A stretch of 64,000 nt of DNA, taken from the UHGV virus genome UHGV-0038492; one strand, 5' to 3'. The DNA comes from a virus. A model generated the notes under the pieces. It saw nothing but the letters and a program-made list of their open reading frames with translations. It had not been told where the DNA came from and ran no database searches. Below, piece after piece: positions 357 to 28,423 of this stretch; position 1 is the first letter of the stretch; every line of letters starts with the position of its first letter. Made by a program: the position numbers and the translations under genes.

Positions 357-1967
357 ATGGCAAGCTACAGCGAAACTCGTGAATTTATCTTGAAAGTTTT
401 TATGGCTAAACAGGATCAGCTGTTGAACTATCTCGTCGACGCGATGAATGCGAAAGGGATAAAAGAAGATCCGTTTGTTAATGCAGCGTGTATTGTGGGT
501 AACTGGTATCTGCAAAACCGTCGTCCTAGCGACCAGACTAACGTTGCGGTTATCGAAACCTTTAAGGCAACGCTCTATAGCCGTCTGTTAGGTTTAGGTC
601 TGACCCCGTTGCAGCCGGACATTCATAGCGCGTTAGAGAAAGCGTTTGTGCTGGCGAATCAGCTTGCAGAAGAAGCTCGTCGTGCCGGGCAGGGTGGCTT
701 CGGTGTACGTACTGAACCGGTTAACTTCGGTATTCAGAATTCGCAAAATGCGCAACCAACTGCACCGATTCAGGGTTCTTCTGTACCAATGGCCAGCTAT
801 ACTCCGGCCGGTGTAACAGTGCAACCTGTACAACCCGCTCCGGTATTCGGTGGTACTCAGCAACCTCAACCTCAACCGCAAACACAGCCTGCTATTATTC
901 AGCCGACTGTTCCGCAGGAAGTGATGAACAAAAGCAAGCCTGTGGATATGAATAAGGAAACGATGGATGATATCATTCAACGTGCTAACCGTCCTCACCA
1001 TGACATTTTGCGGGTAGAAATTGTGGAAGACTATTTAGATCACGAGCTGAAAGAAAAGATTCAGCAAAACGTTGTTTCGCCGAAAGAAGCCAACACACGC
1101 GTCAAGAATTCTGTGTATGCAGAACATCGTGACTGGGGTGATAAGGTTAGTGAACTGGTTGAAGATAACGACAAACAATATTGCTCGTATGACGATGCGG
1201 GTATCATGGTGAAAGTCGAAAGCGAATATCGTCTGTATCCGATGGCACAGACTGAAACTTCTGCGGTGTATCTCCAGGAGTTTTATAGTTCGGTTCGCCA
1301 GATTATCGACGATCTCGATACCGTACGTGATATTGACGATATTGAAAAGCTGATGGAGCGTGTTTCTAATGACGTCTTCAGACTGCGTGATCTTGCACAA
1401 CGTTTGTTAATGTACTTCCTCACCAAATCTGATGAGAATGAAACGTATCGTAGCGAATGTTCAGCGTTTACTCGTCGTTTCATTGCAACATTAACTGTGC
1501 TGGTTCACAACGCCATCTCCGTGGCATCTGCTTATGGTAAAGACGTTCCGGGTACGAAATTCGTACAGTTGGAATGCTGCCTGGATGACATGACCTACTT
1601 TAAAGAGACGGTGTACGGTCGTACCATCGGTGAAAACGGCGTGAGCAAGTCTGCGGATTATTTCCGTGAAATGTTCCTGCTGATCGCGCGTTCTCTGCGT
1701 AAGCTGCACATTCGACTGACCTGCGATAATAAAGCCATTGAACTGTCTCAGGTAACGTACACGATTTCTCTGCAAGCAGATTATCAATCCGCTAACGATC
1801 GCCACATCGTGGAAATCTCATCATTTGGTAATAGCTTCGAACCGATTGTTTCAATCTACGAAGTCATTAACCAGAAAGCACCAGAAGCGTTCATTAAACT
1901 TAAGACCCCGTCTCACGTTTATTCGCTACTGAGCACAGGTGACGTTACTGCACCGGTTCGTTATTAA
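357..1967 (+). CDS. hypothetical protein with central Pro/Gln-rich linker
   Basis: 536-aa ORF; AGGAG RBS about 10 nt upstream of ATG; low-complexity linker PQPQPQTQP between two ordered halves; no catalytic motif recognised. Confidence 0.8.
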   Translation: MASYSETREFILKVFMAKQDQLLNYLVDAMNAKGIKEDPFVNAACIVGNWYLQNRRPSDQTNVAVIETFKATLYSRLLGLGLTPLQPDIHSALEKAFVLANQLAEEARRAGQGGFGVRTEPVNFGIQNSQNAQPTAPIQGSSVPMASYTPAGVTVQPVQPAPVFGGTQQPQPQPQTQPAIIQPTVPQEVMNKSKPVDMNKETMDDIIQRANRPHHDILRVEIVEDYLDHELKEKIQQNVVSPKEANTRVKNSVYAEHRDWGDKVSELVEDNDKQYCSYDDAGIMVKVESEYRLYPMAQTETSAVYLQEFYSSVRQIIDDLDTVRDIDDIEKLMERVSNDVFRLRDLAQRLLMYFLTKSDENETYRSECSAFTRRFIATLTVLVHNAISVASAYGKDVPGTKFVQLECCLDDMTYFKETVYGRTIGENGVSKSADYFREMFLLIARSLRKLHIRLTCDNKAIELSQVTYTISLQADYQSANDRHIVEISSFGNSFEPIVSIYEVINQKAPEAFIKLKTPSHVYSLLSTGDVTAPVRY

Positions 1968-2344: not shown

Positions 2345-2644
2345 ATGATTAAGTATATTGCAATCAATGTAAACTACGAACGTAACCCACGTTTTCGTTT
2401 TGAGTTACCTGAAACCAAAGCAACCATGGAGTTTAATCGTTACCTGTTAGAACATTCAAACACCAAAATCAATCACGGTAGATACTGGCTTATCTACTAT
2501 AATGCCCGTAATGAGTTACTGAAAGCCGTCAAGAAATCAGGTCAGTCAGAACTGTTAGCGAAACTGATGGCGTTTGATGGCGATCCTTTAGCAATAGGAA
2601 TTATGTTAGACCTTGCTATCAATAAAGACGAAATAGCATGGTGA
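2345..2644 (+). CDS. hypothetical protein
   Basis: 99-aa ORF with ATG and weak GGGA RBS; followed by bidirectional terminator. Confidence 0.55.
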   Translation: MIKYIAINVNYERNPRFRFELPETKATMEFNRYLLEHSNTKINHGRYWLIYYNARNELLKAVKKSGQSELLAKLMAFDGDPLAIGIMLDLAINKDEIAW

Positions 2645-2657
2645 AAAAAAGAAAGCT

Positions 2658-2704
2658 ACTCCGACCCCAGAAGGGTCGGAGTAAGCTCGAATTATTTTTT
2701 TTTT
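2658..2704. terminator. bidirectional terminator between convergent genes
   Basis: CTCCGACCC-CAGAA-GGGTCGGAG hairpin flanked by an A-run upstream and T11 downstream. Confidence 0.7.
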
Positions 2705-2709
2705 GCTAT

Positions 2710-5379
2710 TTAGAGAGTTTCATCGGTGTTGTCGTCTGTACCGGTATCCGTCTCGTCCGTGCCCTCAGTTGAAACTTCTTCTTCCGTTGTCGTATCGGTT
2801 TCCGTCGTTTCATCATCGGTCATGTCCAAGTCTTCATCACCGCCCAGATCGTCGCCACCAAAGTCGTTGCCCCCGCCGAAGTTATTGGCGTCTTCAGGAT
2901 TCAAATCAGCCGCTTTTGCTATCGTCTGAACTTTACCGGTCGCACGTTTTGCTAACTGAATCAGCGTCTTCGATGCTGCTGCAATTTCATCAGAAATCAT
3001 CTTGACGTTTTCACCACGTTTATCTTCATCGTAGATCAAATCAAACAGATCGGTTTCGATGCCCTGATTACGTAGCCAGTTGCGCGCGTAGAAGGTCTTA
3101 ACCATCGTCTTGAGGTCATCAGGTGACATTTCAATACCTTCGTTCTGAAGCATATTAGCAATGTCGTCCGTGACCACCAGATCTGCAAGTTTCTCGATAA
3201 ATTCATAGCGTTTATCGAAGAGATCAGCTTGAGATGCTGTTGCAGAAGTATCAGGCGGCGGCAAGGTGACCTTCATACCGTTTATAAACTTCGCCATATA
3301 CTCTGACGTTTGTTTTGTCATCTCTTCGCTAGTTACATTCGGATTCTGCTCACGGATATACTCAACGATAATACGGATGAGTTCTGCTTGCAGTTTCGGT
3401 GAAGCTTGCAGACTGTTTGTAACGTAGCGCGTAAGCGGGGTTGAGAGGATTTCCTGTTTCTTCACAATCTGTTGAGTAACCAACAGCGATTTAGAATAAA
3501 TCTGAGAAGCAAACTCCAGGTTCTCCGGGGTAAGTACAAGGTCAGGATCAACACACGCGATGTGACATGTACGGCGTAACAGGTTCTCGTCAATTTGTTG
3601 ATCAGGAACTTTATACTCCGGCGTGGTATCAGACACAGATACTTTGTGGCTGGCGTAGTAATCGTTACCCGTTACGTTAAAGGCAATCCCCGCGTTAGCC
3701 CCCATTGACCAGGCGTCGTTGATATCACCCCACATCGGCAGGCGACGATTGTAGGAATTAAGGATATCTGATTTAACTTGGTCAACAGTTTTTTGACCGT
3801 TTGCATCATCTGGTGACAGCTCAATGTCGTACTGCATGTGACGTGCCGAGTTCAGTACAGATGAGTTCATCGTTGCGAACAGCAGCGCCATCCTGACAGT
3901 AGAGATAATAAAGGAGCGCTCAGTAATAGAAACCCCGATACCGTCTTCGTTAAAGTCCGTTGCAAAATAGCACAAGTTATTAACCGGAATGTAAACCACC
4001 TGAGTATGACGTTTTGCGAGATGCCGCGCTAACAGAATACGACCGAATGTTTCGGTAATATTCATGCTGATTTCTGCGCCACCTAGTGCCTGACTTAATG
4101 CGCGTGCAAATTCGTTTTCAGCGATTTCACCACAACGTGTACTTAAACGGTTGGCGATTTCCGGGGTAATACGAGAAGTGTTCCCTAAGCCCAGATTAGA
4201 ACGGTTAATGATGCTGTCCGTCATCCCGTCGTTATTCAGGTAGTTCATAAAGTTCGCATCGCCGTACAGCGAGGAGCGAGCATTGATGAAGTTACCCATG
4301 TCATCTACGATGGTCAGATAACCGATAGGGTTACGAACGTCATCGCCAATTACCAGTGGCAGCGTTGACTCTGCGGGCAGTAAACGTTCGATGTATTCGA
4401 TTTTGTTATTCTCATCCATTGAGATAATAGGAATATCACCGTACGTTTGTGTTTTCGGTGTTGACTTATACGCCTCGTTTAAATCACCCAAGTTAATGAA
4501 CCCTTTTTCAGCAGCGTCACGCTGACGGTCATCGAAAGATTGATTAGGGTCGAACGGACTGCCACCGTTTGGTGTAGACGGCTTTTCATATGCGGCTTGC
4601 TCTAATTGCCCGTACAATCCCGTACGTGCGTTCTCATGCGCAATACGACGATACAAATCCGGCAGCATGGTAATGCGCGGGTTATCGGTAATCGTGATTT
4701 CCATCTGGAATTTATCCGAGAACATCGAATCGTGCTTACCGAAATCGATTTTCAATGTTTGTGGACCAGTAACGGCTCCGCGTAAACGGTTGAGAATTGA
4801 TTCTACACCAACTCGCTGCCCTTCTTTCGGCGCATTAATAGGCCCGAGGATACCAAGCTGTTGTTCGAAGAACGCCGTTTGAGAACGACGAATAGATTCA
4901 GTAGCGACCTTTGTATTCAGACCGAATAATTGGTCGAAGCCGGTATCCGAGATTATCATCACTGGACTTGCGCCTTTGGTTTTTAACGCATCGTAAATCC
5001 ACTGATATAATTTCTTAGGTAGCTGACGAATGTTATCGTGATAATCACGGGTCGGTGTCAGTAGCGCGTTACGCAGATCAATGGGGATGTCCGCGAAGTT
5101 GTCGTAAATCAACGTCGTGTTGATTAAGTCTTTTGTTGATAGCAGGCTCGAAGTTGCAATAGTAACGATTGTTTCGAGTTCAGGTAACGCATCAAAGATA
5201 CGTTCCGCATTTTTGATAGTACGAATACGTGAACTCGCAATTGCCGTGAGTTCTTGACGTGTTGGCGTAGAACCACCCTCGCTACGCGTACCGCGTTGTT
5301 GCTGAGGTGCTGGGCCCGTAGTTTTACGAAGAATTGCAGCTACGGCGGGGTCGCCCGTTAATTTACTAATATCGTCCAT
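2710..5379 (-). CDS. large hypothetical protein with strongly acidic C-terminal tail (possible virion protein)
   Basis: 889-aa ORF; last ~55 residues almost entirely D/E/T/G; no P-loop seen; a virion/portal-like role is speculation only. Confidence 0.8.
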   Translation of the reverse strand: MDDISKLTGDPAVAAILRKTTGPAPQQQRGTRSEGGSTPTRQELTAIASSRIRTIKNAERIFDALPELETIVTIATSSLLSTKDLINTTLIYDNFADIPIDLRNALLTPTRDYHDNIRQLPKKLYQWIYDALKTKGASPVMIISDTGFDQLFGLNTKVATESIRRSQTAFFEQQLGILGPINAPKEGQRVGVESILNRLRGAVTGPQTLKIDFGKHDSMFSDKFQMEITITDNPRITMLPDLYRRIAHENARTGLYGQLEQAAYEKPSTPNGGSPFDPNQSFDDRQRDAAEKGFINLGDLNEAYKSTPKTQTYGDIPIISMDENNKIEYIERLLPAESTLPLVIGDDVRNPIGYLTIVDDMGNFINARSSLYGDANFMNYLNNDGMTDSIINRSNLGLGNTSRITPEIANRLSTRCGEIAENEFARALSQALGGAEISMNITETFGRILLARHLAKRHTQVVYIPVNNLCYFATDFNEDGIGVSITERSFIISTVRMALLFATMNSSVLNSARHMQYDIELSPDDANGQKTVDQVKSDILNSYNRRLPMWGDINDAWSMGANAGIAFNVTGNDYYASHKVSVSDTTPEYKVPDQQIDENLLRRTCHIACVDPDLVLTPENLEFASQIYSKSLLVTQQIVKKQEILSTPLTRYVTNSLQASPKLQAELIRIIVEYIREQNPNVTSEEMTKQTSEYMAKFINGMKVTLPPPDTSATASQADLFDKRYEFIEKLADLVVTDDIANMLQNEGIEMSPDDLKTMVKTFYARNWLRNQGIETDLFDLIYDEDKRGENVKMISDEIAAASKTLIQLAKRATGKVQTIAKAADLNPEDANNFGGGNDFGGDDLGGDEDLDMTDDETTETDTTTEEEVSTEGTDETDTGTDDNTDETL

Positions 5380-5390
5380 TGGGGTCTCCG

Positions 5391-7574
5391 ATGCAGAGAT
5401 TTAACATATTTCGTGAACAGAACATCGCGTTGGCGAAATCACTGATTATTAAATCAGAATCAATCGCACAACAGATGAATCTGGCAATAACCGAGAACGG
5501 CGGTTTCGTTTCCGATAACCGAAGTACGTGGCGATACTACCTGCATTTAGCAGGACAACGTCACGAATGGGATAAGCCCATTTACATAACGTCGCTCGAC
5601 ACGCAAGAGCAGATAGAATTAACGACAGCCAACCTGTCCCGTCATAAAAAGACCTCAAACGTATTTCGTTCGAACGGCGAGTACATTGAGGAGCTGATCA
5701 GAACGTATCCTGACTACGCGATTTATATCCGGGGTGTGTTTAATCCGGTGGATATAAACTACGCCATCCGTGTGGCTGACTGCTCTATCCTCTATTACGA
5801 CAGTTCATTAGTGGAGTCGCAAGAGACGTCGCTGATGTCGAGATTGGAAGACAGAATAAGGGCAGCTCACGTTCGCTATATGTCAGAAGGGTGGAAAGTT
5901 CACAACGATGCGTTCGTGTTAGCATTCTACTGTATTCTGTATCCGCAGCTACCCGGCATTATCGGCTATATCCGTTCTTCTTTACAGCATACCACGGAAA
6001 CACATTCTTTTTACGTGACCGAGTTCTTAGCATCACACCAAGAACTTCACGAGTTTATGCCTTATCTGACCCAGAAACAGAAATTCATTCTGTATCGGAA
6101 TATTCGTTACTGGGAGCGTAATTCAGGGAAAGAGGAGATTTTCGACTGGCAGATTGATGCGCTACTGACAGGTTGGGGGATGCCTGCGGTCGGGTATAAT
6201 GTTGCGCAGCAGATACACGAACCGAAGGATGATGACGATTCCACGTTAACACCGTTACCGATTGGTTATCAGCAATCGCTTAACTATACGGAAAAGGATT
6301 CTGGTCGAGACCTTGACATTGTAACGACGACGGACATTATCCAGAAGGAAGTCGCGTTAGCGTACAATAACCCGGCGTACGAACCGGAGTATCAAGAAGA
6401 CTTAGATACCCGTTTAAGTTTAACGCAATACCCTAACCTAAAAACCAAACTCATTGAAGTTACAGCAGTCGATCCAGAAGCGATTGAGCGCTTCGAGTAT
6501 CTGCATAACCTCTTTAACGAATGGGTACATCTCGTCGCGAAAGGGAAATACAACATTTACCACGAGATTCTTAACCCAACAAACGGGGATACCTTAAAGC
6601 TTAGCTCAAAAGAGTTATTGGCGCTGTTCTTGTACGCGGCGTATAAAGGGTATTCTGACGTTGCGTTAGAAGAGATTCCTGTGTTCAACGTATTCGGGGT
6701 GTTAATCAAACGCTGGGTTCCATTCGATGAAATGGAACAACATTTAATCCCGAGCTGGGAAAACCGTTTCGATGCGTTGATTAACTATTATACCGATACG
6801 CACACAGAAGTCGTCGGAACGATTCTTAGTGCTGATGAACTTTACGACACGGTTAATGAAATCATTACCCAGAAACGCCGTCGTTGGCGTTATAGCCAAA
6901 ACCGTCGGAAGATTCCTGACCGCGCTGCGGGCTTGATGCTGTTTAACTACCATTATCGTGATTATCGTTGCGATTTAAAACTGAACTACCGTAACTACGA
7001 TGAGTTCTTTAAAACGTTTGGGTTAGACTATACGTTGGTTTCGGCGGAGACGTGGCAAGACATTGCTATTGATGCGTTTAACACCGCAACTAACCTGGAA
7101 ACCCGCGCAACGATTTCACAGTCTGAGATTCAGCGTGCGATGGTACGACTGATGACGAAGCTGTCATCCTACACCGTACATTTTGCTGCACGAATGGGGT
7201 CAGATTCTTACGACGTTATGGACCCGCTCTGTCCTATCTTAGGGGATATCCCTATGAGTGGGGAGGGGACAATTACAATTATTGAACCCCTCTTAGGCGT
7301 ACAGCAAGTTACGCGTCACCAGTATATGTCCACCGACACTGTGTTACCGGCAGCGCCTGTTATTAAAGAACTGTCGATGCCACAGCACATCAAACTCAGG
7401 ATGAACATTTACATGGGTATCCGAGTGAAAGTAACACAGCAGGTTGTGGTGGATATTAACGAGCCGACTACCGGGGTTGTTAAAGTGAAATCTTCGCTTG
7501 ACGATTGGACGTTAAACGAACAGGTGAAAATTAACGATCTGGACGGCTTCACGCTTGACCAGCTACCTAAGTGA
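5391..7574 (+). CDS. hypothetical protein
   Basis: 727-aa ORF from ATG 5391 (track start 5379 is a TTG); diverges from the 889-aa gene with no intergenic space; no Walker motif seen. Confidence 0.75.
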   Translation: MQRFNIFREQNIALAKSLIIKSESIAQQMNLAITENGGFVSDNRSTWRYYLHLAGQRHEWDKPIYITSLDTQEQIELTTANLSRHKKTSNVFRSNGEYIEELIRTYPDYAIYIRGVFNPVDINYAIRVADCSILYYDSSLVESQETSLMSRLEDRIRAAHVRYMSEGWKVHNDAFVLAFYCILYPQLPGIIGYIRSSLQHTTETHSFYVTEFLASHQELHEFMPYLTQKQKFILYRNIRYWERNSGKEEIFDWQIDALLTGWGMPAVGYNVAQQIHEPKDDDDSTLTPLPIGYQQSLNYTEKDSGRDLDIVTTTDIIQKEVALAYNNPAYEPEYQEDLDTRLSLTQYPNLKTKLIEVTAVDPEAIERFEYLHNLFNEWVHLVAKGKYNIYHEILNPTNGDTLKLSSKELLALFLYAAYKGYSDVALEEIPVFNVFGVLIKRWVPFDEMEQHLIPSWENRFDALINYYTDTHTEVVGTILSADELYDTVNEIITQKRRRWRYSQNRRKIPDRAAGLMLFNYHYRDYRCDLKLNYRNYDEFFKTFGLDYTLVSAETWQDIAIDAFNTATNLETRATISQSEIQRAMVRLMTKLSSYTVHFAARMGSDSYDVMDPLCPILGDIPMSGEGTITIIEPLLGVQQVTRHQYMSTDTVLPAAPVIKELSMPQHIKLRMNIYMGIRVKVTQQVVVDINEPTTGVVKVKSSLDDWTLNEQVKINDLDGFTLDQLPK

Positions 7575-7581
7575 GAAAACC

Positions 7582-8109
7582 ATGGCATATCGCGTCGACT
7601 TAACGAAAACTCCGAAACAAATTCTGGTAGATCGTATTAACTACGTTTTCGGGGTATCCTATACCACTGATAACATCGATTTTAACGATAAAGGTGTGCA
7701 ACCACTGACGAAAGACGAAGCCCGTCGTTACGGACTGGAATCGAAAGTGGCCGCTGACTTTAAAAACGGTGTTACAGGGAACCAGGAATTCATCTTAACC
7801 CGTGTTGACCTGGCAACGTTCTTAGCTGACGAACCGGTTACGGTACCGAAAGGCGAAGTAACCAGCAGCCAAGAACTGGCAGACTATATCGTTGCCCAGA
7901 CCGGTATTGATTTGACCCAAGACGACATTATGATCGAGCCTATCAGTGAGGAACTCGATTCTTATGATGTTCGCTTAGTCCCGAATCACTTATCTTTTAA
8001 AGGAACGATTCCGGTCGTATTTACTGACCCCACACCACGCACGTTGGCGTCTCTCGTGACGAAACTTGCGCTGGACGGGTTCCGCCCTGGAGAATTAATC
8101 AATGTCTAA
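7582..8109 (+). CDS. hypothetical protein, distant member of the fibre-associated small-protein family
   Basis: ATG at 7582; contains the motif ELADYIVAQTGIDLTQDDI resembling the xNLxPxDL motif of ORFs at 27860, 38024, 47326 and 48188. Confidence 0.6.
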   Translation: MAYRVDLTKTPKQILVDRINYVFGVSYTTDNIDFNDKGVQPLTKDEARRYGLESKVAADFKNGVTGNQEFILTRVDLATFLADEPVTVPKGEVTSSQELADYIVAQTGIDLTQDDIMIEPISEELDSYDVRLVPNHLSFKGTIPVVFTDPTPRTLASLVTKLALDGFRPGELINV

Positions 8110-8989
8110 TGTCAAAGTTTACGACGGTAAACTCTCGACGGTAACACTTAATGCGATGCGTCTGGCTACCGCATTAATTACCGGTGCCGATGTGCAATAC
8201 CCACAGAAGTCCACACTGAATGAGTTTTATAAACTCATGCAAACCCCAGTGCCGGACGGTAAAGCACGTCCCCATTTGCAGTACATGGCGATTGGTAACC
8301 GTGGCCATATGGTCGACACATCAGACGTTGTTGCTGATGTTGTTCCTGTAGCTAAAGAACCTATCGCGTCCGGGATGTTTTCACGCGTTCCGTTTGTCCT
8401 GCGTACTAAAGACAACGATTTGTCTGATGAACAGCGTAAGAACTACGCTTTCCGTACTCTGGAAACCATCAACAAACGTGAGTATTGGGCGTACTACTTA
8501 AAACGCATTGACATGCGTGCAGTAAAAACTACCGACTACGACATTAAGCGTGAGAACGGTGTTGAAACTGTAGAAGACTTTGTCTATACGGATACTGAAC
8601 TGAACCCGGTACCGAAAGTGTTGCCGGACTACGATTACGATGATGACGGTACCGTTGCAATTCCTGACGGCCGTTATGTGGAATCAGGTGCAGACCTGGT
8701 TATTCCGTGGACGGACTTTGACGTTCAGGAGTACATGAACGTGACCAGCATTATGCGCGGTAGCCCTCGTAGTTCGATTATCTCTGAACTGGCACTGTGC
8801 TCTGGCTTAGACCAGGTAACGTCCGGTGACTCTGCTACAGGTTCGAAGTTCAGCTACACTGAAGCTATCGGTGTACAAGCCCTGTATTACATTTCGATGT
8901 TTACTAACCTGGCGCAGACGAACGATAAACTGTCACTGACAATCCGTATCGGTCAACCTGCACCGTTCTTCTTAGGGACAGCGAATTAA
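8102..8989 (+). CDS. hypothetical protein
   Basis: 295-aa ORF, GGAGAA RBS, start overlaps upstream stop. Confidence 0.7.
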   Translation: MSNVKVYDGKLSTVTLNAMRLATALITGADVQYPQKSTLNEFYKLMQTPVPDGKARPHLQYMAIGNRGHMVDTSDVVADVVPVAKEPIASGMFSRVPFVLRTKDNDLSDEQRKNYAFRTLETINKREYWAYYLKRIDMRAVKTTDYDIKRENGVETVEDFVYTDTELNPVPKVLPDYDYDDDGTVAIPDGRYVESGADLVIPWTDFDVQEYMNVTSIMRGSPRSSIISELALCSGLDQVTSGDSATGSKFSYTEAIGVQALYYISMFTNLAQTNDKLSLTIRIGQPAPFFLGTAN

Positions 8990-9633
8990 TGTTGATTCCT
9001 GAGCCGAGACTTCCCGATAAAATGGTCAGGATCGCGGCGATAGACCCCGGTACGAGCCATCTCGGGATGGCGGTGCTGGATTGGGAATATGGCAGCGACC
9101 AAGCCGAAGTGGTGTGGGCTGATACCATGCACGTATTAGACCCAACACATCCAAGTGCGTTTGCAGAGTGTGTCGGTAAACGCGACGATCGCTTAGTAAA
9201 ACTCGAAGCGTGCTACCGTGAGTTTCTTCGGATTGCGCGTCCGACGTTTGTTGCAACAGAAACGCCGTTTATGCGGCGGGCAAAACTCTCCGCGTATGAG
9301 TCTGGTGTAGAGTTACAGCTGATGTTAAGACGGGCGTTATGGGACGTGTTTCCAGAGAAAGTGTTACACGGGTTCAATCCGATTATTGTAAAATCATTCG
9401 TCGGTGTGGAAGCGAAAGGAACGGACAAAACAGATATGTTTCGTGCCGTAACGAAGTTGTATCGCGACCACGCGTTGTTTGACATTACAACGTTGGATGA
9501 GCACAGTATCGATGCCGTGGCGGTGGGGAATATCTTTGTCAGGGTAAACCTGTTAAACTTGAATAGTCTCCTACCGCCAAAACAAAAGTCTGCTAAGACA
9601 GCAAAACGGCGGAGAAGACGTCGGAGGAAATAG
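8989..9633 (+). CDS. RuvC/RNase-H-fold protein (putative Holliday-junction resolvase) with poly-Arg C-terminal tail
   Basis: N-terminal RIAAIDPGTSHLGMAVLD resembles the first catalytic strand of RuvC-family resolvases; C-terminus KRRRRRRRK. Confidence 0.5.
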   Translation: MLIPEPRLPDKMVRIAAIDPGTSHLGMAVLDWEYGSDQAEVVWADTMHVLDPTHPSAFAECVGKRDDRLVKLEACYREFLRIARPTFVATETPFMRRAKLSAYESGVELQLMLRRALWDVFPEKVLHGFNPIIVKSFVGVEAKGTDKTDMFRAVTKLYRDHALFDITTLDEHSIDAVAVGNIFVRVNLLNLNSLLPPKQKSAKTAKRRRRRRRK

Positions 9634-21745: not shown

Positions 21746-22252
21746 ATGAGTGAGACTCTGGATTTTAATCAGCTCGAACAACACGATTTCGACCTCGGTG
21801 TTCGTGATATCGATGCTGATCATGAAACACGTTGTAAAGAGCTGTTTAACCGTTACGGTCAGCTCATCACCGGTGCCTCTGATGACACCGAATTCAGTTT
21901 AGATGAGTTTGAAAAAGTTCTGTCGTGTTTTATCACTGACTGTCTGGCGAAGAAAGCGTTGCTGGTCGAACTGAACTTAGACTCCGTCGAACCTACTGAT
22001 GCCCATGCGGTGTTGAAAGAATCCATTATCCCAACTGATGAGATTATGGACACTGTCGCAGGTATTCGCGGTACGTTTGAAACTGCCGTAGAAGAATACA
22101 CGGAACAGCTTCGTGAATCAGGACTGACGTTGTGTGCGCCAGCAGGTGAGCCTTTACCGTCCGACGAAGAAACTGAAGAAGCGCGTAGTCGCTTAGCGCG
22201 TTATGTTATTACGTCTATCTTGGTAGATGATCGCGAAGAGAATCTGCTATAA
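21746..22252 (+). CDS. acidic hypothetical protein
   Basis: 168-aa ORF, strongly acidic; terminator downstream. Confidence 0.6.
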   Translation: MSETLDFNQLEQHDFDLGVRDIDADHETRCKELFNRYGQLITGASDDTEFSLDEFEKVLSCFITDCLAKKALLVELNLDSVEPTDAHAVLKESIIPTDEIMDTVAGIRGTFETAVEEYTEQLRESGLTLCAPAGEPLPSDEETEEARSRLARYVITSILVDDREENLL

Positions 22253-27859: not shown

Positions 27860-28423
27860 GTGGCCACATCTTACGTACCTGATTTGAGTCTGACCTCAGC
27901 AGAGCTAGTGGTCGCTTTAATCAATCATGATAACGGGTTACAGCTTACACTAAACGAAATCCGTATTAGCGGAACTGTAACAAACCCATCCCCAACAACT
28001 TCGCGACGTAACACTATCACCGAAATCAGTAAAATCAGAAAACCAGATGGTGCGTCTGTTGTGGTTTACTACGACAGACTTGACGCCGATGAGGTATTAA
28101 CGTCCGAACCTATTTTGATTTCGTTAGACGGTACCGAAGCGAACATTCGTGATGTGCTTAGTGTTGTAAATGAATACTGCGGTACGAATTTACAACCTGA
28201 GGACTTACGTGCCTCAGATATTACTTCAGGTAATGATCCTATTGCTATTAACGTTGCTGACGATTCTCCTGCCTGGATGAATGCGTTTATGGTGACGTTG
28301 TTTGATAAAACCGAACGTGCGTTAGCGAACGAAGAAGATGAAATCTTCTGCATCGGTGACGATAGCGTTCTTACATTCGAGGTTACAGATGGCGACAGCA
28401 CTGAAGAAGACGAGACTCCATGA
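27860..28423 (+). CDS. fibre-associated small protein, family member 1
   Basis: GTG start after GGAGGG; homologous to ORF 38024 (PDLSLTS..., ...NLQPEDL); directly precedes a fibre gene. Confidence 0.65.
   Translation: MATSYVPDLSLTSAELVVALINHDNGLQLTLNEIRISGTVTNPSPTTSRRNTITEISKIRKPDGASVVVYYDRLDADEVLTSEPILISLDGTEANIRDVLSVVNEYCGTNLQPEDLRASDITSGNDPIAINVADDSPAWMNAFMVTLFDKTERALANEEDEIFCIGDDSVLTFEVTDGDSTEEDETP

Follow-up and report, generated by a model that had tools for sequence, protein, structure and literature searches.

What is a long, acidic and disordered tail doing at the end of a phage structural protein? The question is raised by a stretch of 64,000 nucleotides from the virus genome UHGV-0038492 (the window, to which all coordinates refer), in which a minus-strand gene at 2710..5379 encodes a protein of 889 amino acids plus the stop codon. 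A preliminary description of this DNA had pointed to an extremely acidic, Thr-rich tail of low complexity at the C-terminus of the protein, and had thought of a portal or inner-capsid protein, with SSB and DNA-mimic proteins as possible comparisons. Our analysis indicates that the protein is almost certainly a portal, and that its tail belongs to the whole portal family in composition but not in sequence. The tail should point into the capsid, where we favour a role based on its charge.

The identity of the protein is the firmest of these conclusions: we regard it as practically certain that it forms the portal of a jumbo phage that is related to phiKZ and resembles SPN3US and Asesino, and that it is the orthologue of SPN3US gp81, phiKZ gp129 and Goslar gp36. 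A Pfam search gave no significant family and no OB or SSB match, so that PHROGs, PDB sequences and phage records had to serve for identification. In PHROGs, residues 2-886 match phrog_3004 ('virion structural protein', head and packaging) with E=0. By tblastn against 50,697 phage records the protein matched 256 records, all of them jumbo phages, with Erwinia phage Asesino (75% identity) and Salmonella phage SPN3US (72.5%) as the best matches, and the series of relatives reached phiKZ gp129 at 24.7% identity. The PDB holds three homologues: 9XPE, the 12-chain portal-adaptor structure of phiKZ gp129 (chain 9xpe_M, E 1e-40), 11ED, with 'Portal Protein gp36' of phage Goslar (chain 11ed_J, E 1e-27), and one further 12-chain entry. 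An AlphaFold2 model built on 36 homologues was moderate (mean predicted local distance difference test score, pLDDT, 61.5; predicted template modelling score 0.48), with a better core. When this model was searched with Foldseek, the best match was again 9xpe_M (E 9e-20, probability 1.0), and the next 49 matches were all portals or portal-containing assemblies, HFTV1, T4, SU10, crAss001 and N4 among them.

Structure prediction of the globular part, which the preliminary description had proposed, therefore led to portals only and not to an unrelated enzyme fold, and the SPN3US orthologue, far from being absent from virions, is a portal assigned by proteomics, with 12 copies assumed in each virion (PMC5694885, PMC10052503). 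The portal option stood on the match to SPN3US gp81, the phiKZ and Goslar matches and the Foldseek result; the inner-capsid option did not. A dodecameric portal at one capsid vertex has been shown for phiKZ (PMC13250141) and Goslar (preprint 10.64898/2026.04.21.720040), and by analogy with these homologues the window portal would also be present in 12 copies per virion. The gene neighbourhood agrees with SPN3US and with two metagenomic loci (L003 and L004) in order and in gene sizes. It keeps a divergent 727-residue structural gene, DUF7941, DUF7208 and RuvC-like genes on one flank of the portal, and genes for 99, 83 and 536 residues toward the major capsid gene on the other. Against deposited phages, the best nucleotide match of the window covers 52% of the query at 73% identity, and the closest protein encoded in the 50,697 phage records is at most ~75% identical to the window portal; metagenomes hold portal proteins 97% identical to it. 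The window portal thus adds one more member to a family already known, and the protein itself is ordinary.

The tail is the part that stands out. In the translation of the minus-strand open reading frame (ORF), the C-terminus reads ...DFGGDDLGGDEDLDMTDDETTETDTTTEEEVSTEGTDETDTGTDDNTDETL / ...AKAADLNPEDANNFGGGNDFGGDDLGGDEDLDMTDDETTETDTTTEEEVSTEGTDETDTGTDDNTDETL, and the last basic residue of the portal is K822. Among residues 833-889 (57 amino acids) are 14 D, 9 E, 14 T and 9 G but no K, R or H; their net charge is -23, or -25 when counted from residue 826. Measured against the composition of the protein itself, hypergeometric P values were 1e-6 for the excess of D/E, 3e-4 for the excess of T and 8e-4 for a final stretch of 67 residues without K/R. 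When the portal was shuffled 2000 times, no 57-residue window held more than 22 D/E, against the 23 observed, and sequence entropy in the tail is 2.76 bits, compared with a mean of 3.86 bits in the remaining protein. Among the 75 ORFs of the window, the tail contains the most acidic 30-residue segment (-15). Translation, composition and shuffles thus bear out the acidic, Thr-rich, low-complexity tail of the preliminary description. Its range, 2710-2880, equals residues 834-889 plus the stop codon, but the low-complexity part begins already at about residues 826-833 on the minus strand. From composition, statistics and pLDDT, we place the polyanionic, predicted-disordered C-terminal tail at residues 826-889 (2713..2904, minus strand). 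Twelve copies of it give a calculated total of about -300 charges per portal.

Within the tail, four segments can be read on the minus strand. A Gly-rich hinge with two FGG motifs, NFGGGNDFGGDDLG, occupies residues 833-846 (2842..2883) and is followed by an acid-flanked hydrophobic-x-hydrophobic motif, EDLDMT, found by motif scan at residues 849-854 (2818..2835). A Thr/Asp/Glu-rich run then extends over residues 855-886 (2722..2817), and the C-terminal tip is E-T-L with a hydrophobic last residue (2713..2721). DNA alignment with the relatives in L003 and L004, which are 97% identical and 905 residues long, places the junction of a 48-nucleotide in-frame deletion at 2853..2854 (minus strand). 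This deletion lies cleanly between GGTGGC and GGCGGT and removes 16 residues of the GSEGDGDLGGDEDLGG type, that is, one GGDEDL-type repeat; an in-frame loss of this size between such close relatives shows that the length of the tail is tolerant to change. Tandem Repeats Finder detected no tandem repeat in the tail-encoding DNA, and the repetitiveness of the tail lies at the level of peptide and composition. Nucleotide similarity of the window to other phages ends at 2986, ahead of the tail. Two plus-strand ORFs that overlie the tail (2703..3005 and 2726..2929) were rejected as genes, since their Ser/Pro/Val-rich products are mirror translations of the acidic codons.

Circularity was avoided in the search for tails in other portals by using residues 1-825 only as the query against 1.84 billion cluster representatives (E<=1e-3). 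This tail-less query gave 1111 matches. An uninterrupted acidic tail of at least 50 residues was present in 113 of 138 diverse full-length representatives, with a median of 80 residues, 28 D/E and 2 K/R, and most of the others have an acidic block that is followed by a Ser/Thr- or Lys-rich extension. Closer to the window portal, all of the ~55 full-length homologues (44-97% identical) end in a tail of 80-110 residues, of which 24-53 are acidic and none or almost none are K/R, and the sequences of these tails cannot be aligned. Tail length ranges from ~50 to 250 residues across the family. The last 60 residues of 142 representatives contain 20% D, 17% E and 13% G, with only 0.3% R and 0.1% H. 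R and H each occur at 0.07 times their frequency in the protein body, and T is only 1.3-fold enriched. The median number of T per tail is 5, and most tails are without a T-rich acid run. Richness in Thr is limited to some lineages, namely those of the window portal, SPN3US and Goslar and a scattering of others; the word 'Thr-rich' thus describes the window tail but not the family. The tail itself is a family-wide trait of composition, not of sequence.

Short hydrophobic motifs within these tails are also more frequent than their composition predicts. With shuffles that preserve composition, and with representatives of 50%-identity clusters that are still phylogenetically related, [FWY]GG was found in 35 of 142 family tails compared with 10.8 +/- 2.9 in shuffled tails, and the acid-flanked hydrophobic-x-hydrophobic motif in 56 of 142 compared with 22.1 +/- 4.2. 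The last residue is hydrophobic in 54 of the 142 representatives, where 25.6 +/- 4.4 are expected from tail composition. Some homologues end in ...DDDIPL, ...EDIPQ or ...DDIPL and the window portal in ...DETL, and no single tip motif is common to all. Our search of the portal literature for an acidic C-terminal tail returned nothing relevant, the Goslar text does not use the word 'acidic' once, and no discussion of the tail was found in the phiKZ 9XPE paper or in the papers on SPN3US gp81 that we consulted.

The position of the tail on the portal is suggested by its neighbour in the chain. In the AlphaFold2 model, residues 824-889 are coil with pLDDT of 31-34, and no secondary structure is predicted in the tail, which emerges from the last predicted helix of the crown region (residues 785-823, 2911..3027, minus strand). 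HMMER aligns residues 692-880 of the window portal with residues 761-965 of Goslar gp36, in which the crown domain comprises residues 778-923 of 969 and forms the portal's top, and in which the acidic final ~46 residues belong to no assigned domain (preprint 10.64898/2026.04.21.720040). The crown lies further inward than the other components of portals (PMC4493910). As the tail follows the crown, these homologues suggest that it extends inward, into the capsid, around the channel's inner mouth.

Whether the tail is still there in the virion depends on proteolytic maturation, which in SPN3US removes the other end of the protein. There, the prohead protease gp245 cuts gp81 at ATE-161 and AQE-254 and removes an N-terminal propeptide of 254 residues (PMC5694885, PMC10052503). 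By alignment, the equivalent sites in the window portal are A-T-E at residues 159-161 (4897..4905, minus strand), where E161 is nearly invariant, and the maturation site A-H-E at residues 247-249 (4633..4641, minus strand), where A247 and E249 are invariant in 36 sequences. N250 would then be the first residue of the mature window portal, after a predicted propeptide of ~249 residues. The motif A-x-E occurs in the window portal only at residues 159, 247, 263 and 289, and the motif scan found none after residue 291. Moreover, the mass of the mature SPN3US portal, 72.3 kDa from residue 255 to the C-terminus, fits its gel migration (SPN3US literature). Since the window portal has no A-x-E beyond residue 291 and the SPN3US mass includes the C-terminus, the tail most likely stays on the mature portal, unlike the N-terminal propeptide, as far as sequence can tell. 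The wing domain of Goslar gp36 has been reported to begin at residue 5 (preprint 10.64898/2026.04.21.720040), in contrast to the 254 N-terminal residues lost by SPN3US gp81, and N-terminal portal processing may differ within the family. We also considered, and rejected, that the acidic tail might serve to neutralise the N-terminal propeptide of the portal: the propeptide is only weakly charged, with a net charge of +2 here and a median of -1 over 36 homologues.

Given such a location, we put at about even the chance that the role of the tail is based on charge and acts in the capsid interior, as a retained polyanionic brush at the inner portal mouth which also docks internal proteins. Selection would act on composition and not on sequence or length, keeping the tail at ~37% D/E, rich in Gly and nearly free of Arg and His, and a constraint on charge and disorder suggests an electrostatic, brush-like role. 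The twelve disordered tails, with their ~-300 charges, would surround the inner mouth of the channel and could stop packaged DNA and other polyanions from adhering to, or blocking, the inner face of the portal and its unusually wide channel. Such a brush would extend the negatively charged upper surface noted for other portals; in T4, negative charge on the upper surfaces of the portal has been described as avoiding the binding of packaged DNA (PMC4493910). The embedded hydrophobic motifs (FGG, EDLDMT and the terminal L) may be weak docking sites for internal head proteins. The channel is 74 to 60 Å wide in Goslar (preprint 10.64898/2026.04.21.720040), compared with 44 to 28 Å in T4 (PMC4493910), and these phages carry hundreds to thousands of ejected internal proteins (preprint 10.64898/2026.04.21.720040; SPN3US literature). 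We favour the brush because of this rationale for negative surfaces, the wide Goslar channel and the many ejected internal proteins. DNA repulsion, channel gating and partner docking by the tail are each offered as hypotheses only.

Several observations weigh against the brush. The tail is invisible in the cryo-electron microscopy maps of phiKZ and Goslar (633 of 896 residues are modelled in 9xpe_M), and a search of the SPN3US mass-spectrometry supplement found no tail peptides and no peptide-level data. The exit point of the tail from the crown is taken from homologous structures, the AlphaFold2 model of the portal being moderate, and the relatedness of the representatives also bears on the motif counts. 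The enriched hydrophobic motifs are left unexplained by pure DNA repulsion; and twelve tails are too few to be general receptors for internal proteins that are present in hundreds to thousands of copies. In addition, the portals of T7, lambda (gpB) and P22 (gp1) function without an acidic tail, so that the tail is no general requirement for a portal.

Invisibility in maps and in reported mass spectrometry is what would be expected if the tail existed only in the prohead and were removed at maturation like the N-terminal 249 residues, with no role in the virion. Proteases of the phiKZ type have been reported to accept S/A/G-x-E, the tail contains G-D-E and S-T-E triplets, and SPN3US gp245 itself loses a C-terminal propeptide (PMC10052503). 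However, the logo of the SPN3US-type protease is strictly A-x-E, a motif absent after residue 291, and the gel migration of the SPN3US portal matches a mass with the C-terminus included. Disorder and the lack of K/R suffice to explain why the tail escapes detection, because a segment without K/R makes tryptic mass spectrometry blind to it. We therefore consider removal at maturation very unlikely. Similarly little probability remains for a slippage-prone and functionally indifferent appendage of low complexity, tolerated since it points into free space. Its sequence is not conserved, its length varies from ~50 to 250 residues, a repeat-flanked 48-nucleotide in-frame deletion separates it from 97%-identical relatives, and nucleotide similarity to other phages never reaches into it, all of which suits neutral drift. 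Nevertheless, the trait is kept in over 100 lineages with no more than 22-50% identity to one another, and drift would not maintain D/E near 37% together with the near exclusion of Arg and His (0.07 times the body frequency), nor does it account for motifs above shuffles. These motifs would matter most if the tail were an assembly platform that acts mainly in the prohead. They would then recruit or nucleate core components at the portal, namely the candidate scaffold, the protease of the prohead and proteins of ejection or of the inner body, and the acidic residues would provide no more than a soluble, flexible spacer. The 2- to 3-fold excess of motifs over shuffled tails speaks for such a platform, as do the packaging of hundreds to thousands of internal proteins (Goslar preprint; SPN3US), the disordered last 42 residues of T7 gp8, which have been proposed to become ordered on core proteins (PMC6702177), and the altered prohead expansion behaviour caused by C-terminal GFP fusions on T4 gp20 (PMC9958956). 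Yet the motifs are far from universal (56 and 35 of 142 tails for hydrophobic-x-hydrophobic and [FWY]GG, respectively), charge and the exclusion of Arg and His are constrained most strongly and most widely, and the monomer AlphaFold2 model shows no docking of the tail or its motifs onto the portal body. We regard the platform as rather unlikely, though less so than removal or drift.

The remaining readings involve a basic partner. A scan of the window for strongly basic proteins gave one striking case, the poly-Arg tail of a RuvC-like Holliday-junction resolvase of 214 residues (8989..9633, plus strand; phrog_159, E 9e-39), which is encoded four genes from the portal and ends in ...KTAKRRRRRRRK / ...PPKQKSAKTAKRRRRRRRK. 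All 50 full-length homologues of this resolvase (37-96% identical) have a basic C-terminus, with net charges of +10 to +15 in the last 25 residues. This basic tail could serve DNA binding, targeting to the phage nucleus or the binding of a partner, and the opposite charges of the portal and resolvase tails are suggestive. Before DNA entry, tails of 64 residues (contour length ~23 nm) might thread the channel outward and bind basic packaging partners outside the capsid, such as the resolvase with its poly-Arg/Lys tail, the terminase or nuclear-shell docking factors, a proposal that we find hardly credible. A resolvase with a ...KRRRRRRRK end encoded nearby, the conservation of its charge in 50 of 50 homologues and a Goslar channel 60-74 Å wide are in line with an outward tether, and in PMC9958956, which cites Golz & Kemper 1999, the T4 resolvase gp49 is described as portal-bound. 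But the crown is directed into the capsid and the DNA on which a resolvase has to work is outside it, DNA binding is the simplest explanation for a polybasic tail on a nuclease, and ChmB is absent outside Pseudomonas phages, whereas the acidic tail is family-wide. We also leave a very slim chance to a flexible charge gate or brush in the wide channel whose tails would in addition dock the poly-Arg/Lys tail of the resolvase. If true, portal and resolvase would form a charge-complementary pair, analogous to T4 gp20-gp49, that clears branched DNA during packaging at the phage nucleus.

A family-wide tail would place ~300 to 600 negative charges at the inner portal mouth, and in these phages thousands of internal proteins and 200-300 kb of DNA must pass a portal channel of great width. 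A charged brush that carries docking motifs could thus plausibly contribute there to head assembly, to the retention of DNA or to ejection. Such a role is easy to test, and amber-mutant genetics in SPN3US is suited to testing it. The tail is worth recording as a family appendage which is conserved in composition, invisible to cryo-electron microscopy and tryptic proteomics, and unmentioned in the portal literature that we searched.

Some further features of the locus were noticed. Downstream of the portal stop codon, a GC-rich, terminator-like hairpin of 13 pairs (2656..2684, minus strand) is bordered by an A-run and, on its opposite side, by a T-run. Placed between the convergent 99-residue gene (2345..2644, plus strand) and the portal gene, it resembles an intrinsic terminator that works in both directions. 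At the other end, only 11 nucleotides separate the ATG of the portal gene (5377-5379, minus strand) from the probable ATG of the divergent 727-residue gene (5391, plus strand), likewise in SPN3US and L003, so that promoters for either gene, if any, have to be located within coding regions. The operon that runs away from the portal gene also encodes a DUF7941 protein (7555..8109, plus strand, E 7e-14), from a family linked to self-assembling filaments and host recognition (preprint 10.64898/2026.04.21.720040), and a DUF7208 protein (8102..8989, plus strand, E 1e-100). Between the portal and the major capsid gene region, the 536-residue phrog_8185 protein (357..1967, plus strand) has a Gln/Pro-rich stretch of low complexity, ...QQPQPQPQTQPAIIQPTVPQ..., at residues ~150-190. 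Two small and very acidic proteins are encoded on the plus strand of the window: one of 168 residues at 21746..22252, with an isoelectric point of 4.2 and a net charge of -26, and one of 187 residues at 27860..28423, with an isoelectric point of 4.1 and a C-terminal segment of -13 over 30 residues. In records of Salmonella phages SPFM1 to SPFM20 (P0059-P0065), 'hypothetical proteins' of 512-828 residues match the portal in 25-34 short stretches at ~75% identity, which looks like frameshift-ridden or error-containing portal genes.

Disordered acidic C-terminal tails with a hydrophobic tip are known from E. coli SSB (...DDDIPF) and T7 gp2.5. The window tail is like these in charge pattern alone; it is much longer and is carried by a portal. 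SSB membership was ruled out, the ordered part having a portal fold and no OB fold. A DNA mimic of the Ocr/ArdA type was ruled out as well, given a coil tail with pLDDT of 31-34, neither length nor sequence conserved, and no rigid scaffold. The comparison with SSB and DNA-mimic proteins made in the preliminary description therefore reduces to a resemblance of charge and not to membership.

Among portals, SPN3US gp81 (YP_009153375.1) shares with the window portal 72.5% identity over residues 1-834, the gene order and both protease sites, and has a similar K/R-free tail in which Gly is followed by Thr/Asp/Glu, ...TGETTESTETTDTTTEGTEGAEDEGTTDDNPDNVL. It differs in size (913 versus 889 residues), and the two tails cannot be aligned residue by residue. 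Goslar gp36, at ~25% identity and with 969 residues, also has an acidic, Thr-rich end, ...DDFGGGDDFGDTDFDTETMEETSTEETTTSEETTTDTTSEDDTS, after the crown, with the same layout of FGG, hydrophobic-x-hydrophobic motif and T/E/D run. The phiKZ portal gp129, a dodecamer with a T4-like core (PMC13250141), is homologous to the window portal, is its best structural match and has an acidic C-terminus (-21 over the last 60 residues); yet identity is ~25%, and its tail is rich in Ser, Glu, Asp and Ala and not in Thr.

C-terminal extensions and acidic C-termini also occur on portals outside this family. The C-terminal extension of T7 gp8 also points into the capsid and is a functional analogy for docking of internal proteins, although it is not acidic (-4 over the last 60 residues). 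The extension of the P22 portal points into the capsid too, as a barrel of long helices (about 100 residues or more) that form a coiled coil, but a P22-type barrel was ruled out here, because the helix at residues 785-823 (39 residues) is followed by non-helical residues 824-889, and the P22 C-terminus is not acidic. SPP1 gp6 (...LLDDEGGDDDLEEDDPNAG..., -17 over the last 60 residues) and T4 gp20 (...EEESKEARFQDPDQEQEDF, QEQEDF end, -11 over the last 30 residues, hydrophobic last residue) have acidic C-termini, located at the crown, that are milder than the window tail. In T4 this stretch is mostly helical crown with 8 disordered residues only (PMC4493910), and both acidic stretches are much shorter and belong to proteins without detectable sequence homology to the window portal family. 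The tail of the chimallivirus group is thus an extreme form of a trait that occurs sporadically among portals.

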